A DNA stretch of 6,253 nucleotides from a virus (Duplodnaviria; Heunggongvirae; Uroviricota; Caudoviricetes): IMG/VR virus record IMGVR_UViG_2690316278_000010; one strand, written 5' to 3'. Of the stretch, positions 1-6,253 are shown piece by piece (position 1 is the stretch's first letter; every line of letters begins with the position of its first letter). The notes below the pieces were generated by a model, which was not told the DNA's origin, made no database searches, and worked only from the letters and a program-made list of their open reading frames with translations. The position numbers were made by a program, and so were the translations under genes.

Positions 1-392
1 TGACGGACTGTTACACGCTGTTCCGGGATGCTTACCATCTGGCGGGGATTGAGATGCCGGATTTTCATCGTGAGGATGACTGGTGGCGTCACGGTCAGAA
101 TCTCTATCTGGATAATCTGGAGGCCACAGGGCTGTATCAGGTGCCGTTGTCAGCGGCGCAGCCGGGCGATGTGCTGCTGTGCTGTTTTGGTTCATCGGTG
201 CCGAATCATGCCGCCATTTACTGTGGTGACGGCGAGCTGCTGCACCATATTCCTGAACAACTGAGCAAACGAGAGAGGTATACCGACAAATGGCAGCGAC
301 GCACACACTCCCTCTGGCGTCACCGGGCATGGCACGCATCTGCCTTTACGGGGATTTGCAACGATTTGGCCGCCGCATCGACCTTCGTGTGA
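1..392 (+). CDS. K: Tail tip assembly protein K, C-terminal part (NlpC/P60-type domain); 5' end lies upstream of the window
   Basis: Frame 3 is open from the window edge to TGA at 390-392. Translation (…CYTLFRDAYHLAGIEMPDFHREDDWWRHGQNLYLDNLEATGLYQVPLSAAQPGDVLLCCFGSSVPNHAAIYCGDGELLHH…) matches lambda gpK C-terminus as I recall it, including the conserved His pair of the NlpC/P60 motif. The M at 54 in the ORF track is an internal Met, not the start. Confidence 0.9.
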   Translation, partial: TDCYTLFRDAYHLAGIEMPDFHREDDWWRHGQNLYLDNLEATGLYQVPLSAAQPGDVLLCCFGSSVPNHAAIYCGDGELLHHIPEQLSKRERYTDKWQRRTHSLWRHRAWHASAFTGICNDLAAASTFV

Positions 393-961
393 AAACGGGT
401 GCCGAAGCCATCCGGGCGATGGCCACACAGCTCCCTGCGTTTCGTCAGAAGCTGAGCGACGGCTGGTATCAGGTGCGTATTGCCGGGCAGGATGTTAGCA
501 CGTCCGGATTAACGGCGCAGTTACATGAGGCTCTGCCTGACGGCGCTGTGATTCATATTGTTCCCAGAGTCGCCGGGGCCAAGTCAGGTGGTGTATTCCA
601 GATTGTCCTGGGAGCAGCCGCCATTGCCGGATCATTCTTTACCGCCGGAGCCACCCTTGCAGCATGGGGGGCTGCCATTGGTGCCGGTGGTATGACCGGC
701 ATTCTGTTTTCTCTCGGTGCCAGTATGGTGCTCGGCGGTGTGGCTCAGATGCTGGCACCGAAAGCCAGAACTCCCCGCACACAGACAACGGATAACGGTA
801 AGCAGAACATCTATTTCTCCTCACTGGATAACATGGTTGCCCAGGGCAATGTTATGCCTGTTCTGTATGGTGAAATGCGCGTGGGGTCACGTGTGGTATC
901 TCAGGAGATCAGCACGGCAGACGAAGGGGACGGTGGTCAGGTTGTGGTGATTGGTCGCTGA
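290..961 (+). CDS. I: Tail tip assembly protein I (ubiquitin-like N-terminal domain plus Gly/Ala-rich hydrophobic segment)
   Basis: ATG at 290, TGA at 959-961, 223 aa. Purine-rich RBS-like agagagg at 272-278. Translation is nearly identical to lambda gpI as recalled (MAATHTLPLASPGMARICLYGDLQRFGRRIDLRVKTG…GGQVVVIGR). Start overlaps the 3' end of K by 103 nt in another frame, as in lambda. Confidence 0.92.
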   Translation: MAATHTLPLASPGMARICLYGDLQRFGRRIDLRVKTGAEAIRAMATQLPAFRQKLSDGWYQVRIAGQDVSTSGLTAQLHEALPDGAVIHIVPRVAGAKSGGVFQIVLGAAAIAGSFFTAGATLAAWGAAIGAGGMTGILFSLGASMVLGGVAQMLAPKARTPRTQTTDNGKQNIYFSSLDNMVAQGNVMPVLYGEMRVGSRVVSQEISTADEGDGGQVVVIGR

Positions 962-1021: not shown

Positions 1022-2101
1022 ATGGGTAAAGGCAGCAGTAAGGGGCATACCCCGCGCGAAGCGAAGGACAACCTGAAGTCCACGCAGCTGCTGAGTGTGA
1101 TCGATGCCATCAGCGAAGGGCCGGTTGAAGGTCCGGTGGATGGATTAAAAAGCGTGCTGCTGAACAGTACGCCGGTGCTGGACAGTGAGGGGAATACCAA
1201 CATCTCCGGCGTCACGGTGGTGTTCCGGGCAGGTGAGCAGGAGCAGTCACCGCCGGAGGGATTTGAATCCTCCGGCTCCGAGACGGTGCTGGGTACGGAA
1301 GTGAAATATGACACGCCGATCACCCGGACCATCACGTCGGCAAACATTGACCGACTGCGTTTTACCTTCGGTGTACAGGCACTGGTGGAAACCACCTCAA
1401 AGGGAGACAGGAATCCGTCTGAAGTTCGCCTGCTGGTTCAGATACAGCGTAACGGTGGCTGGGTGACGGAAAAAGACATCACCATTAAGGGCAAAACCAC
1501 CTCGCAGTATCTGGCCTCGGTGGTGGTGGATAACCTGCCGCCGCGCCCGTTTAATATCCGGATGCGCAGAATGACGCCGGACAGCACCACAGACCAGCTG
1601 CAGAACAAAACGCTCTGGTCGTCATACACCGAAATCATCGATGTGAAACAGTGCTACCCGAACACGGCACTGGTCGGCGTACAGGTGGATTCGGAGCAGT
1701 TCGGCAGCCAGCAGGTGAGCCGTAATTATCATCTTCGCGGGCGCATTCTGCAGGTGCCGTCGAACTATAATCCGCAGACGCGGCAATACAGCGGTATCTG
1801 GGACGGAACGTTAAAACCGGCATACAGCAACAACATGGCCTGGTGTCTGTGGGATATGCTGACCCATCCGCGCTATGGCATGGGGAAACGTCTTGGTGCG
1901 GCAGATGTGGATAAATGGGCGCTGTATGTCATCGGCCAGTACTGTGACCAGTCGGTGCCGGACGGCTTTGGCAGCACGGAGCCGCGCATCACCTGTAATG
2001 CCTGGCTGACCACACAGCGCANCGGGAGACAGCGGACAGCACCACGGACCAGCTGCAGAATAAGACGCTGTGGTCGTCATACACCGAAATCATCGATGTG
2101 A
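1022..2101 (+). CDS. J: Host specificity / central tail fibre protein J, N-terminal fragment; frame ends at a stop created by the repeat junction
   Basis: ATG at 1022. Translation MGKGSSKGHTPREAKDNLKSTQLLSVIDAISEGP… matches lambda gpJ N-terminus as recalled. J-like translation is reliable to about 2020; after the single N at 2022 this frame reads out-of-frame sequence to TGA at 2099-2101. Confidence 0.88.
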   Translation: MGKGSSKGHTPREAKDNLKSTQLLSVIDAISEGPVEGPVDGLKSVLLNSTPVLDSEGNTNISGVTVVFRAGEQEQSPPEGFESSGSETVLGTEVKYDTPITRTITSANIDRLRFTFGVQALVETTSKGDRNPSEVRLLVQIQRNGGWVTEKDITIKGKTTSQYLASVVVDNLPPRPFNIRMRRMTPDSTTDQLQNKTLWSSYTEIIDVKQCYPNTALVGVQVDSEQFGSQQVSRNYHLRGRILQVPSNYNPQTRQYSGIWDGTLKPAYSNNMAWCLWDMLTHPRYGMGKRLGAADVDKWALYVIGQYCDQSVPDGFGSTEPRITCNAWLTTQRXGRQRTAPRTSCRIRRCGRHTPKSSM

Positions 2102-2475
2102 AACAGTGCTACCCGAACACGGCCATTGTGGGGCTGCAGGTGGATGCGGAGCAGTTCGGCGGCCAGCAGATGACGGTGAACTACCATATCCGCGGTCGCA
2201 TCATCCAGGTGCCGTCAAACTATGACCCGGAAAAACGCACGTACAGTGGTATCTGGGACGGTAGCCTGAAACCGGCATACAGCAACAATCCGGCCTGGTG
2301 TCTGTGGGACATGCTGACTCACCCGCGCTACGGCATGGGAAAACGTCTGGGGGCGGCGGATGTGGACAAGTGGGCGCTGTATGCCATCGGGCAGTACTGC
2401 GACCAGACGGTCCCGGATAGTTTCGGGGAGACCGAGCCGCGGATGACCTTCAATGCGTACCTGGCACAACAGCGT
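1579..2475 (+). repeat. Divergent tandem duplication of a ~440 bp J segment (copy 1 ~1579-2020, copy 2 ~2034-2475), single N at 2022 between them
   Basis: Both copies encode the same J stretch (…DSTTDQLQNKTLWSSYTEIIDVKQCYPNTA…WCLWDMLTHPRYGMGKRLGAADVDKWALY…TTQR) with many synonymous and some replacement differences. By eye roughly 80-90% nucleotide identity, gapless; not computed. The period is about 455 bp, not a multiple of 3, so the frame shifts between copies. Confidence 0.85.
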
Positions 2476-3147
2476 AAGGCATGGGACGTGCTCAGTGATT
2501 TCTGCTCGGCGATGCGCTGTATGCCGGTATGGAACGGCCAGACGCTGACGTTTGTTCAGGACCGCCCGTCGGATGTGGTGTGGCCGTACACCAACAGCGA
2601 TGTGGTGGTGGATGATAACGGCGTGGGTTTCCGCTACAGCTTCAGTGCCCTGAAGGACCGGCACACGGCGGTGGAGGTGAATTATACCGACCCGCAGAAC
2701 GGCTGGCAGACCTCCACGGAACTGGTGGAAGACCCGGAAGCCATACTGCGCTACGGACGCAACCTGCTGAAGATGGACGCGTTCGGCTGTACCAGCCGCG
2801 GTCAGGCCCACCGTGCCGGACTGTGGGTGATAAAGACCGAACTGCTGGAAACGCAGACGGTGGATTTCACGCTCGGGTCTCAGGGGCTGCGGCACACACC
2901 CGGTGACATCATTGAAATCTGTGATAACGACTATGCCGGGACCCTGACCGGCGGACGTGTCCTGTCCATTGATGCTGCCACCCGCACTCTGACGCTGGAC
3001 CGTGAAGTGACACTTCCGGAGACCGGTGCCGCCACGGTGAACCTGATTAACGGCAGCGGTAAGCCGGTGAGTGTGGACATCACCGAACACCCCGCGCCGG
3101 ACCGGATACAGGTTAGTACCCTGCCTGATGGTGTGGAGACATACGGG
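2023..3147 (+). CDS. J: Host specificity protein J, middle fragment (different frame from the N-terminal fragment; runs open into the N gap at 3148)
   Basis: Frame 1 reads …DSTTDQLQNKTLWSSYTEIIDVKQCYPNTAIVGLQVDAEQFGGQQ…AWDVLSDFCSAMRCMPVWNGQTLTFVQDRPSD…GQAHRAGLWVIKTELLETQTVDF…, colinear with lambda gpJ. The ORF-track start at 2098 is an internal GTG (Val) codon. Confidence 0.85.
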
Positions 3148-3208
3148 NNNNNNNNNNNNNNNNNNNNNNNNNNNNNNNNNNNNNNNNNNNNNNNNNNNNN
3201 NNNNNNNN
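3148..3208. other. Assembly gap (61 N) inside J
   Basis: Run of N. J reading frame differs on the two sides (frame 1 before, frame 3 after), so the gap length is an estimate. Confidence 0.95.
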
Positions 3209-3358
3209 ACTGCGCCGTCTCCTGTTCCGCTGTGTCTCCGTCCGGGAAAACACGGACGGCACCTTTGCCATCACGGCGGTGCAGCACGTACTGGAAAAAG
3301 AAGCCATCGTGGATAACGGTGCCCGCTTTGAGCCGCAGTCAGGTTCCCTGAACAGCGT
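3209..3358 (+). CDS. J: Host specificity protein J, short fragment between two assembly gaps
   Basis: Frame 3 from 3210 reads LRRLLFRCVSVRENTDGTFAITAVQHVLEKEAIVDNGARFEPQSGSLNSV, matching the lambda gpJ segment …LFRCVSIRENDDGTYAITAVQHVPEKEAIVDNG… as recalled. Bounded by N runs on both sides. Confidence 0.8.
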
Positions 3359-3649
3359 NNNNNNNNNNNNNNNNNNNNNNNNNNNNNNNNNNNNNNNNNN
3401 NNNNNNNNNNNNNNNNNNNNNNNNNNNNNNNNNNNNNNNNNNNNNNNNNNNNNNNNNNNNNNNNNNNNNNNNNNNNNNNNNNNNNNNNNNNNNNNNNNNN
3501 NNNNNNNNNNNNNNNNNNNNNNNNNNNNNNNNNNNNNNNNNNNNNNNNNNNNNNNNNNNNNNNNNNNNNNNNNNNNNNNNNNNNNNNNNNNNNNNNNNNN
3601 NNNNNNNNNNNNNNNNNNNNNNNNNNNNNNNNNNNNNNNNNNNNNNNNN
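3359..3649. other. Assembly gap (291 N) inside J
   Basis: Run of N. J resumes in frame 1 after the gap (frame 3 before it). Confidence 0.95.
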
Positions 3650-5151
3650 ACCGGCAGNCGGATGCCAGACTGGTGACCACCGCCATCACCGCAGACACGG
3701 AGCACCGTTTCAGCGGCCTGCCGCTCGGGGAATACACCCTGACGGTGCGGGCGATAAACAGCTATGGCCAGCAGGGTGAACCTGCCACCACCACCTTCCG
3801 GATTGCCGCACCGGCAGCGCTGTCGCGGATTGAGCTGACGCCGGGCTATTTTCAGATAACCGCAACGCCGCATCTTGCCGTTTATGACCCGACGGTACAG
3901 TTTGAGTTCTGGTTCTCGGAAAAGCGGATTGCGGATATCAGGCAGGTTGAAACCAGCGCCCGCTATCTTGGCACGGCGCTGTACTGGATAGCCGCCAGTA
4001 TCAATATCAAACCGGGCCATGATTATTACTTTTATATCCGCAGTGTGAACACCGTTGGCAAATCGGCATTCGTGGAGGCTGTCGGTCGGGCGAGCGATGA
4101 TGCGGAAGGTTACTTGGATTTTTTCAAAGGAGAGATAGGGAAAACACATCTGGCTCAGGAGCTGTGGACGCAGATTGATAACGGTCAGCTTGCGCCTGAC
4201 CTGGCTGAAATCAGGACGTCCATTACGGATGTCAGCAATGAAATCACGCAGACCGTCAATAAGAAACTGGAAGACCAGAGTGCGGCAATTCAGCAGATAC
4301 AGAAGGTTCAGGTTGATACAAATAATAATCTGAACAGCATGTGGGCTGTGAAGCTGCAACAGATGAAGGACGGACGCCTTTATATTGCGGGTATCGGTGC
4401 CGGTATTGAGAATACGCCAGCAGGAATGCAGAGTCAGGTGCTGCTGGCGGCAGACAGGATTGCGATGATTAATCCTGCGAATGGCAACACAAAGCCGATG
4501 TTTGTTGGTCAGGGCGATCAGATATTCATGAACGACGTGTTCCTGAAACGCCTGACGGCCCCCACCATTACCAGCGGTGGAAATCCATCGGCATTTTCCC
4601 TGACTCCGGACGGAAAGCTGACCGCTAAAAATGCGGATATCAGTGGCAGTGTGAATGCGAACGCCGGGACGCTCAACAATGTCACAATTAATGAGAACTG
4701 TCAGATTAAGGGGAAACTGTCAGCCAACCAGATTGAAGGCGATATAGTCAAAACAGTGGGTAAGGCTTTTCCGCGGGACTCCCGGGCACCGGAGCGGTGG
4801 CCATCAGGGACCATTACCGTCAGGATTTATGACGATCAGCCTTTTGACAGGCAAATTGTTATTCCGGCGGTGGCATTCAGCGGCGCTAAACATGAGCGGG
4901 AGAATAACGATATTTATTCGTCATGCCGCCTGATAGTACGGAAAAACGGTGCTGAAATTTATAACCGTACCGCGCTGGATAATACGCTGATTTACAGTGG
5001 TGTTATTGATATGCCAGCTGGTCGCGGCCACATGACGCTGGAGTTTTCGGTGTCAGCATGGCTGGTGAATAACTGGTATCCCACAGCAAGTATCAGCGAT
5101 TTGCTGGTTGTGGTGATGAAGAAAGCCACCGCAGGCATCAGTATCAGCTGA
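3650..5151 (+). CDS. J: Host specificity protein J, C-terminal fragment (FN3-like region and receptor-binding C-terminal domain)
   Basis: Frame 1 is open from the gap edge to TGA at 5149-5151. Translation …[64 protein letters not shown]…[42 protein letters not shown]… matches lambda gpJ as recalled. The ORF-track start at 3673 is an internal GTG codon; an ambiguous N sits at 3658. Confidence 0.88.
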
Positions 5152-5168
5152 ATTTTATAACCCATATA

Positions 5169-5197
5169 CGGGCGCCAGAAATGGCGCCTTTTTTATT
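5169..5197 (+). terminator. Intrinsic (rho-independent) terminator immediately downstream of J
   Basis: Perfect 6-bp GC stem GGCGCC (5171-5176) paired with GGCGCC (5183-5188), 6-nt loop AGAAAT, followed by TTTTTTATT (5189-5197). It starts 18 nt after the J stop. Confidence 0.8.
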
Positions 5198-5207
5198 GCA
5201 GAAAAGC

Positions 5208-5213
5208 GAGAGG
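5208..5213 (+). promoter_or_regulatory. Ribosome-binding site (GAGAGG) for lom
   Basis: GAGAGG at 5208-5213, 5 nt upstream of the lom ATG at 5219. Confidence 0.6.
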
Positions 5214-5218
5214 TAATT

Positions 5219-5818
5219 ATGCGTAAAGTTTGTGCAGCCATTTTGTCCGCAGCCATCTGTCTGTCCGTATCCGGTGCGCCTGCATGGGCGTCTGAACATC
5301 AGTCCACACTGAGCGCGGGGTATCTTCATGCCCGTACGAACGCTCCCGGCAGCGATAATCTGAACGGGATTAACGTGAAATACCGTTATGAGTTTACGGA
5401 CGCGCTGGGGCTGATTACGTCCTTCAGTTATGCCAATGCTGAGGATGAGCAAAAAACGCACTACAGCGATACCCGCTGGCATGAAGATTCCGTGCGTAAC
5501 CGCTGGTTCAGCGTGATGGCGGGGCCGTCTGTACGCGTGAATGAATGGTTCAGCGCGTATGCGATGGTGGGTGTGGCTTACAGCCGTGTGTCGACTTTCT
5601 CCGGGGATTATCTCCGCGTAACTGACAACAAGGGGAAAACGCACGATGTGCTGACCGGAAGTGATGACGGTCGCCACAGCAACACGTCTCTGGCGTGGGG
5701 GGCTGGCGTGCAGTTTAACCCGACCGAATCCGTGACCATTGACCTTGCTTATGAAGGTTCCGGTAGTGGTGACTGGCGAACGGATGCATTTATTGTTGGT
5801 ATCGGATACCGTATCTGA
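5219..5818 (+). CDS. lom: Lom outer-membrane protein (Ail/Lom/OmpX/PagC-family small beta-barrel), prophage moron
   Basis: ATG at 5219, TGA at 5816-5818, 199 aa. N-terminal signal peptide with AWA-S cleavage-like site (MRKVCAAILSAAICLSVSGAPAWA/SEHQ). Family motifs shared with lambda Lom as recalled: GINVKYRYE, SVMAGP, SAYAM(V/A)GVA(Y/H)SR, IDLAYEGSGSGDWRTD(A/G)FIVG(I/V)GY. Same position as lom in lambda, between J and stf. Confidence 0.9.
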   Translation: MRKVCAAILSAAICLSVSGAPAWASEHQSTLSAGYLHARTNAPGSDNLNGINVKYRYEFTDALGLITSFSYANAEDEQKTHYSDTRWHEDSVRNRWFSVMAGPSVRVNEWFSAYAMVGVAYSRVSTFSGDYLRVTDNKGKTHDVLTGSDDGRHSNTSLAWGAGVQFNPTESVTIDLAYEGSGSGDWRTDAFIVGIGYRI

Positions 5819-5922
5819 CAACAGACGCCGATTTATCTTCTGTAAATATTGTTATGATACGCAGGTTCATCCACCTTATGGGGTGAACTGCGTTTGAGGA
5901 AACGTAAAGTTACACTGTCCTG

Positions 5923-5956
5923 AAGCCCGTGGCGTCACTGCTGCGGGCTTTTTTTA
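5923..5956 (+). terminator. Intrinsic terminator downstream of lom
   Basis: Stem AAGCCCG (5923-5929) pairs with CGGGCTT (5944-5950) around a ~14-nt loop, followed by a run of 7 T (5949-5955). Confidence 0.7.
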
Positions 5957-5969
5957 TTGGTGGAAAAGT

Positions 5970-6253
5970 ATGACAGTAAAAATTTCTGGCGTGCTTAAAG
6001 ATGGCACAGGAAAACCAGTACAGAACTGCACCATTGTGCTGAAGGCCAGACGAACCAGCAGCACGATGGTGGTGAANNNNNNNNNNNNNNNNNNNNNNNN
6101 NNNNNNNNNNNNNNNNNNNNNNNNNNNNNNNNNNNGGATGAAGCCGGACGTTACAGCATGGATGTTGAGCATGGTCAGTACAGCGTCACCCTGCTGGTTG
6201 AAGGTTTTCCGCCTTCACATGCCGGGACCATTACCGTCTATGAAGGTTCCAGA
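5970..6253 (+). CDS. stf: Side tail fibre protein Stf, N-terminal part (3'-truncated by window edge; interrupted by a 59-N gap)
   Basis: ATG at 5970. Translation MTVKISGVLKDGTGKPVQNCTIVLKARRTSSTMVV… then, after the gap, …DEAGRYSMDVEHGQYSVTLLVEGFPPSHAGTITVYEGSR, matching the lambda Stf (orf-401) N-terminus as recalled (MAVKISGVLKDGTGKPVQNCTIQLKARR…DEAGRYSMDVEYGQYSV…GFPPSHAGTITVYE…). Frame differs across the gap, so gap size is an estimate. Confidence 0.85.
   Translation, partial: MTVKISGVLKDGTGKPVQNCTIVLKARRTSSTMVVXXXXXXXXXXXXXXXXXXXXXMKPDVTAWMLSMVSTASPCWLKVFRLHMPGPLPSMKVP
6077..6135. other. Assembly gap (59 N) inside stf
   Basis: Run of N. Confidence 0.95.

Follow-up and report, generated by a model that had tools for sequence, protein, structure and literature searches.

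Structures of phage lambda gpJ, the central tail fibre protein, have provided the names and the order of its distal domains, namely the alpha-helical shaft (AHS), the beta-sheet prism stalk or central straight fibre (CSF), and the receptor-binding domain (RBD) (PMC11101478). Lambdoid prophages are already well documented to exchange the specificity region of J as a module, and positions ~1012, 1048/1049, 1077, and 1107 of lambda gpJ are hot spots of indels and specificity (Maddamsetti et al., PMC6646904). Receptor use in the gpJ family is labile; the native receptor of phage 21 is LamB and a single mutation in J adds OmpC (PMC11336670), and OmpC is used by "some lambdoids" (Brödel et al., PMC11338833). 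In the chimera 1A2, lambda gpJ has been given the C-terminus of a natural prophage allele in place of its own from residue 964 onwards (Brödel et al., Nature 2024, PMC11338833). In an MG1655 host deleted for lamB and ompC, 1A2 gave 2% delivery with the K-12 OmpC and 98% with the EDL933 OmpC, whereas in wild-type MG1655, which has LamB, it gave 5% compared to 98% for lambda gpJ (PMC11338833). At the top dose, delivery by 1A2 was at least 76% with 20 of the 23 natural OmpC variants, the exceptions being G1, G2, and G40 (source data of PMC11338833). Since delivery by 1A2 is LamB-independent and OmpC-dependent, the swapped segment suffices to change the receptor of lambda from LamB to OmpC.

The stretch of DNA analysed here (the window, 6,253 nt) represented the tail-tip end of a lambdoid prophage, in which K and I were located upstream of J, and lom and stf downstream (Table 1). 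The region directly following J (5152-5197) was 97.8% identical to the stretch after the phage 21 J gene, which carries an annotated terminator. The lom DNA was 100% identical to that of loci L006-L011, which come from six public NCBI assemblies fetched by means of the exact Lom protein. From 3673 to the stop codon of J the reading frame was uninterrupted, and 4130-5151 was free of N.

Table 1. Features of the window. Residue numbers are positions in the 492-aa stretch encoded by 3673-5148.
Feature	Coordinates (nt)	Strand	Residues (aa)	Remarks
K, 3' end only				Upstream of I; lambda-like tail gene order
I	290-961			Upstream of J; lambda-like tail gene order
J	1022-5151	+		Stop codon 5149-5151
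5' part of a different, lambda-like J	1022-2020	+		96% nt identity to lambda; joined out of frame at ~2021
Middle of VR50/L008-type J	2023-3358	+		~79% nt identity to lambda; N run 3148-3208 inside
End of first and whole second Ig/FNIII domain	3673-4128	+	1-152	Pfam Ig_J (2-47), Ig_J_second (51-151)
Predicted alpha-helical shaft (AHS), central fibre, long variant	4129-4347	+		Domain by alignment to lambda gpJ
Beta-sheet prism stalk (CSF)	4348-4743	+		Pfam Phage_Tail_Tip (205-333)
RBD, Ig-like, with stop codon	4744-5151	+	358-492	Last 135 aa (4744-5148); 1A2/VT1-Sakai type
L1-like loop, predicted receptor-facing	4765-4806	+	365-378	14 aa; inter-strand loop in AlphaFold2 model
L2-like loop, predicted receptor-facing	4894-4911	+	408-413	ERENND; hypervariable
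L3-like loop, predicted receptor-facing	4975-4983	+	435-437	LDN
L4-like loop, predicted receptor-facing	5065-5100	+	465-476	12 aa
Terminator-like hairpin and T-run	5170-5194	+		Directly after J; 8 pairs, 6 GC
lom (Ail/Lom outer-membrane beta-barrel protein)	5219-5818	+		Pfam Ail_Lom, E 2e-125
stf (side tail fibre gene), start	from 5969			Gene order J-lom-stf as in lambda

The region 4130-5151 probably encodes the last, distal third of a gpJ central tail fibre of the lambda type, with a long shaft, a beta-prism stalk, and an Ig-like RBD, a reading that includes OmpC as the receptor (see below). The Pfam domains Ig_J, Ig_J_second, Phage_Tail_Tip, and Ig_GpJ_C occurred in this order, and the succession FNIII-shaft-stalk-RBD was collinear with that of lambda gpJ. 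The RBD matched PF12421 (Ig_GpJ_C), entitled 'Tip attachment protein J, C-terminal receptor binding domain', over the entire profile (aa 362-492, positions 1-135 of 135, 133.5 bits against a gathering cut-off of 26.2, E 6.5e-39). In a sequence search of the PDB, the gpJ of A8 (9wca, E 7e-129) came ahead of lambda gpJ (E 1e-105 to 1e-107). A structure prediction for the last ~150 aa had been proposed in the first-pass annotation; an AlphaFold2 model of the last 193 aa from the single sequence (pLDDT 48) was discarded, and a model based on an alignment of 46 natural homologues (pLDDT 82.4, pTM 0.71) was used instead. The latter showed the gpJ RBD fold, its Foldseek matches being 9wcb, 9wca, and lambda 8xck/8xcj with TM 0.78-0.80, and all others having TM of 0.44 or less. 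The shaft, which would be helical by its correspondence to that of lambda, was 73 aa long compared to 45 in lambda, i.e. 28 aa longer. Analysis of heptads and periodicity in this longer shaft gave the best power at 3.6 residues with no clear a/d register, and "four extra heptads" are not claimed as the signal was too weak.

When aligned by the Smith-Waterman method, window 3673-5148 (492 aa) was collinear with residues 668-1132 of lambda gpJ (NC_001416), with 302 of the 492 columns identical (61%) and a single gap, of 28 residues, in lambda. Identity to the lambda protein, counted in blocks of 25 columns, changed in steps. It was 0.56-0.68 for nt 3673-3822, rose to 0.92-1.00 for nt 3823-4122 (aa 51-152 were 92-100% identical) with an end coinciding with a 12-aa conserved joint at nt ~4128, fell to 0.12-0.32 for nt 4123-4347, was 0.52-0.64 for nt 4348-4497, reached 0.92-0.96 for nt 4498-4647 (54-aa segment), and was 0.20-0.64 in the last ~135 aa. 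The DNA followed the same course, with identities in 60-nt bins of, in order, 0.90-1.00, 0.20-0.33, 0.60-0.68, 0.87-0.95, and 0.23-0.65. At the first boundary, the bins of 3793-4092 were 0.90-1.00 identical to lambda and that of 4093-4152 was 0.83, and identity dropped from 0.98 to 0.20 at ~4130. Compared to phage 21, in contrast, it was 0.98 through the shaft and dropped from 0.87 to 0.45 at ~4750. Thus, judged from the alignments, 4130-5151 is a recombinational patchwork relative to lambda, clear in both protein and DNA.

These data bear on several observations made in the first-pass annotation. The alternation of conserved and divergent blocks relative to lambda gpJ was confirmed, with all of the conserved blocks quoted there being present and aligned. 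The last ~130 residues, described as moderately similar to lambda, and for which near-identity of the last ~150 aa would have meant the opposite, were 42% identical to lambda over the ~135 aa of the RBD. The statement that J tracks lambda up to ~4130 was correct for 1022-2020 and for the lambda-like block 3793-4128, but not for 2023-3358. The AT-richness noted at 4180-4340 was real (GC 0.46 versus 0.57-0.61 in upstream J; 0.479 for the shaft overall), but it is a weak sign of a recombined-in segment, because the helical-shaft segment of lambda is likewise the lowest-GC part of its own J (0.518 versus 0.587). GC content was therefore set aside as proof of import, and the evidence for exchange is the identity profile, in which the shaft segment is 98% identical at the nucleotide level to phage 21 versus 20-33% to lambda.

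The origin of the segments was assessed by comparison with lambda, phage 21, phage 434, VT1-Sakai, the E. coli VR50 prophage, and A8; Gifsy-1 J, also tried, was dropped since its C-terminus was unrelated. For the shaft, identities were 99% to phage 21 (72 of 73 residues), 99% to VR50, and 97% to Sakai, all three sharing the 28-aa-longer form, versus 36% to lambda (16 of 45 aligned residues, apart from the gap) and 38% to 434, both having the short form. For the stalk, identities were 98.5% to VR50, 92% to Sakai/1A2, 89% to phage 21, 81% to A8, 74% to lambda, and 73.5% to 434. For the RBD, they were 100% to VR50, 95% to Sakai/1A2, 66% to phage 21, 63% to A8, 45% to 434, and 42% to lambda. By these identities, the shaft and stalk are of the phage 21 type and the RBD is of the VT1-Sakai/'1A2' type, which is dominant in E. 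coli/Shigella prophages; a C-terminus of the phage 21 type in all three alleles was not found, the RBD being the exception. The breakpoints were located at short invariant stretches, namely DFFKG (the 12-aa joint, ~4128) and the MFV...ADISG block, and the stalk holds a near-invariant 49-aa block that serves as a recombination joint, both natural and engineered. As read from the alignments, this is the pattern of classical cassette exchange at conserved joints, in which allelic J cassettes would be swapped at short near-invariant stretches (the 12-aa DFFKG stretch and the 28-aa ...ADISG stretch).

This RBD type was found to be abundant. Among 5,426 complete E. coli genomes, nt 3650-5900 were matched in 4,900, and an RBD at least 80% identical at the nucleotide level was present in 3,394 (~62%), with a median of two copies per genome and with at least 99% identity in 23 records; the gene carrying it was annotated as 'phage attachment tail tip protein J'. 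The window RBD was 100% identical to that of intact gpJ of 1157 aa, e.g. WP_046072828 of E. coli VR50. Sequenced phages with the same RBD type include the PPompW prophages, many Stx1a and Stx2a phages, PhiR55_1, 2G7b, and P-EibA. The outer-membrane receptor of PhiR55.1 is not given in the PhiR phage paper, and a genome-based receptor-prediction preprint excluded the lambda RBD from its GpJ analysis.

Upstream of the distal third, a single intact J frame of ~1130-1160 codons was looked for, and a frame change, a 455-nt repeat, and N runs were seen in the window. Nt 1-2020 were 95-96% identical to lambda; nt 2023-6253 were 93-99.6% identical to the VR50 prophage and 98.7-100% to the loci fetched via the exact Lom protein; and 2021-2027 contained an ambiguous base and the frame change. 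After this junction J restarted ~455 nt early, with 2028-2327 repeating 1573-1872 at 83% identity. N runs of 61 (3148-3208), 291 (3359-3649), and 59 nt, the first two lying in J, replaced 23, ~115, and 21 nt, respectively, in the closest relatives, and they keep neither the length nor the frame of the homologous stretch. The junction at ~2021 looks like two contig ends of different prophages joined by the assembler, or it may be a real rearrangement; as this case shows, a J gene in a draft assembly can be put together from different prophages.

It is quite possible, although not the expected case, that the RBD is a relic, i.e. that J is a pseudogene in a defective prophage, used by no virion now and serving as a cassette for recombination by other lambdoid phages. 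The frame change at ~2021, at which the first, lambda-like kilobase of one J meets another J that restarts 455 nt earlier, would fit such a state, but ambiguous and garbled bases at 2021 are typical of a contig end and may be an artefact of assembly. Likewise, J was split or uncalled in five of the six loci with identical lom (two or three ORFs in four of them, and no gene called across J in the fifth, L007), and the annotation of the VT1-Sakai J gives it as truncated by mutation, whereas in the window the last 1.5 kb of J form an ORF without interruption, with an RBD 100% identical to those of intact gpJ genes, which is compatible with recent function. The matter concerns the present activity of J, not the identity of the RBD or its binding partner.

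Four loops of the RBD were aligned to the hot spots of lambda gpJ, L1 corresponding to 1012, L2 to 1048/1049, and L4 to 1107, with L3 adjoining 1077. In the AlphaFold2 model they probably lie on one receptor-facing side, the assignment to top or bottom being based on strand alternation rather than on coordinates. The loops that insert into LamB in lambda were not conserved. The L1-like loop shared 7 of 14 residues with lambda, was identical to that of 1A2/Sakai, and was 4 aa longer than those of A8 and phage 21; the L2-like loop shared 0 of 6 with lambda, and A8 and phage 21 had a 5-aa insertion here; the L3-like loop shared 0 of 3 with lambda; and the L4-like loop shared 3 of 12 with lambda, 9 of 12 with A8 and phage 21, and 12 of 12 with 1A2. 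In the variable cores, identity to lambda was 0/7 for L1 and 0/6 for L2. Summed over the four loops, 10 of 35 residues were shared with lambda and 32 of 35 with 1A2. All indels between RBD types were located in these loops. In a set of 21 natural alleles with the RBD type of the window, recurrent polymorphisms were concentrated at aa 406-414, 451-453, and 464-467, which were inter-strand loops in the model, and aa 467 within the L4-like loop was polymorphic (N/D/G/A).

VT1-Sakai and the window differ at 12 sites of the swapped segment, and at each of these the 1A2 C-terminus showed the VT1-Sakai residue. For this comparison the 1A2 DNA was machine-read from the supplement PDF, with bases dropped, and exact 5-mers in its three frames covered 160 of the 173 residues of the Sakai segment 320-492, which begins seven residues ahead of the chimera joint. 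The window was identical to 1A2/VT1-Sakai (Sp15, E. coli O157:H7) at 156 of 168 residues of the swapped segment, i.e. above 90%, and at 128 of 135 residues of the RBD, with no indels and with equal loop lengths. The seven RBD differences (window to 1A2) were I358L, I385V, R409K, N411H, N412T, R451H, and S490T. Three of them changed half of the L2-like loop (ERENND to EKEHTD) and R451H sits in the PAGxG loop, while the L1-, L3-, and L4-like loops were identical.

Since the 95%-identical RBD of 1A2 has been characterised as an OmpC user, the receptor of the window's RBD is, by analogy and together with the gpJ mosaic reading above, most likely OmpC rather than LamB. The first-pass annotation had suggested that the receptor may be other than LamB, which the published experiments on 1A2 support, and had considered that it cannot be inferred from sequence, which was too pessimistic, the allele type having already been characterised. 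The rule that divergence from lambda indicates a non-LamB receptor was rejected; phage 21 uses LamB with an RBD 48% identical to lambda (and 81% identical to that of the OmpC-using A8), so distance from lambda is uninformative on the receptor.

With OmpC instead of LamB as the porin, the RBD trimer would reach with its four distal loops into the trimeric protein from the extracellular side, as shown for relatives. Binding would then spread the bases of the RBD, twist the stalk, flip the helical shaft, and open the tail tip, as shown for lambda in the gpJ-LamB structures (PMC11101478). The OmpC variants accepted would be set by the hypervariable loops, where the window allele differs from 1A2. 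As three of the seven RBD differences fall in a hypervariable, probably receptor-facing loop, the OmpC range of the window allele could differ from that of 1A2. That the window/VR50 sub-allele (R409, N411, N412, R451) differs from 1A2 in the OmpC variants it recognises is a tentative and rather doubtful proposal from these residues. If true, this sub-allele might accept the K-12-like G1/G2 or the Shigella sonnei OmpC, and polymorphisms of the L2-/L4-like loops would follow the variation of OmpC in E. coli as part of an arms race between prophage and host.

The same loop differences raise the question of whether the RBD has been retargeted to another porin, such as OmpF, PhoE, or NmpC, or to an outer-membrane protein of some other kind. 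Lambda needs few substitutions in J to use OmpF, as does phage 21 to use OmpC and OmpF (PMC6646904, PMC11336670), and the differences from 1A2 do lie in a hot-spot loop; with only 7 of 135 RBD residues differing, however, with three of the four predicted receptor loops identical and indels absent, and with 20 of 23 divergent OmpC variants tolerated by 1A2, which suggests robust OmpC recognition, retargeting is improbable. Binding to LamB, alone or with OmpC, with the divergence being neutral or antigenic drift in a LamB-binding family, finds a precedent in phage 21, with which the window shares most of the shaft and stalk and two-thirds of the RBD residues, but it is very improbable given that 1A2 is poorly active on LamB-bearing MG1655 where lambda gpJ is efficient, that it is fully active in a lamB deletion host provided with the EDL933 OmpC, and that the window's L1- and L2-like loops are set apart from those of phage 21 by indels.

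With OmpC as the probable receptor, the feature is nevertheless an ordinary one, i.e. an abundant J allele type that is already known and of which a near-identical relative has been characterised experimentally; no other RBD type is as common in E. coli genomes, and with the 95%-identical allele lambda particles have already been redirected to OmpC. A suitable annotation of the gene would be gpJ whose RBD is of the 1A2/Sakai type and probably specific for OmpC. For receptor assignment, an RBD type is better matched to a characterised allele than judged by its distance from lambda.

Among the named systems, lambda gpJ (NP_040600; PDB 8iyk, 8xck, 8xcj) had the same domain order and fold, was 97-100% identical in the FNIII-2 block, and shared WPSGT, FDRQIV, DMPAGRG, and the conserved stalk block with the window, but its shaft was 28 aa shorter, its shaft and RBD were diverged, and it binds LamB. 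The J of phage 434 (OL657227.1) belonged to the same family and architecture, with a short lambda-type shaft and with indels in all four loops of the RBD; in the classical literature, phage 434 is reported to use OmpC. The J of phage 21 (OL657228.1) was like the window in the shaft, including its additional 28 aa, and in the stalk, but differed in the RBD, with indels in the L1- and L2-like loops, and in its native receptor LamB. The gpJ of A8 (9wca, closed; 9wcb, open with OmpC G17 of E. coli EDL933), the best match among solved structures by sequence and by fold (TM 0.79), binds OmpC, has the same kind of Ig-like RBD as the window, and is similar in its L4-like loop, although the RBD identity was lower and the L1- and L2-like loops differed in length, and it accepts the K-12 OmpC, which the 1A2 type does not. 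The native VT1-Sakai J possessed a long shaft and a stalk like those of the window, while the 1A2 chimera derived from this allele type carries the shaft and upper stalk of lambda, and it is with the RBD of these two that the window allele shared equal loop lengths and the highest identity after VR50.

The J gene of the window, which encodes the central tail fibre protein gpJ, was composed of two unlike alleles that met out of frame at nt 2021–2027. Nt 1–2020 shared 95–96% nucleotide identity with lambda, and J from nt 2023 onward was of the type found in the prophage of E. coli VR50 and in L008, one of six loci (L006 to L011) fetched from public NCBI assemblies by the exact Lom protein. The second allele restarted 455 nt earlier in the gene, such that nt 1573–1872 were repeated by nt 2028–2327 with 83% identity, and an "n" at nt 2022 was followed by garbled bases. 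The junction is probably an assembly join between the J genes of two prophages; it could also be a real rearrangement that inactivated J.

Downstream of the junction, the window contained three N runs, two of them within J, and a further lone "n" at nt 3657. Compared with L008 and the VR50 prophage, the closest relatives, these runs kept neither length nor reading frame, as listed in the table below together with the other features. The split of J into two ORFs in these relatives fell within the 291-N run.

Features of the window downstream of the J junction
Feature	Position (nt)	Details
N run	3148–3208	61 N; 23 nt in L008 and the VR50 prophage
N run	3359–3649	291 N; ~115–137 nt in L008 and the VR50 prophage
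Intrinsic-terminator-like hairpin and T-run	5170–5194	directly 3′ of J
lom	5219–5818	outer-membrane beta-barrel protein of the Ail/Lom type; E 2e-125 in Pfam
Intrinsic-terminator-like hairpin and T-run	5922–5961	directly 3′ of lom
stf, N-terminus	5969–6253	side tail fibre (Stf); MTVKISGVLKDGTGKPVQNCTIVLKARRTSSTMVV...
N run	6077–6135	59 N; 21 nt in L008 and the VR50 prophage

The window lom DNA was 100% identical to that of all six fetched loci, and the exact Lom protein was indexed in 721 blocks of a public collection. J was not called as a single intact gene in five of these loci (L006 to L010): the calls were of 67 + 547 + 513 aa in L006, L008 and L010, L009 had smaller fragments, and L007 lacked any gene call across J; judged from these gene calls, the prophage lineage may be defective in the five genomes. 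In L011, a 293-aa fragment of the J C-terminus was preceded by a J-like ORF of a different kind, 1012 aa long.

The window lom was 99.6% identical to that of VR50, whereas identity with lambda lom was only ~74% over a short stretch. The stf start shared 99–100% identity with VR50 and the fetched loci, and the full-length VR50 counterpart, about 1,000 aa, carries the annotation "prophage tail fiber N-terminal domain-containing protein". A 46-nt stretch holding the hairpin after J was 97.8% identical to the region 3′ of phage 21 J, where a terminator is annotated in the matching region. In lambda gpJ structures, residues 841–861 of the alpha-helical shaft refold to beta-strands upon receptor binding (PMC11101478). 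The corresponding shaft of the window (nt 4129–4347) was 28 residues longer than those of lambda and 434, and this long form, nearly identical in sequence, was common to phage 21, the E. coli O157:H7 prophage VT1-Sakai, and VR50.
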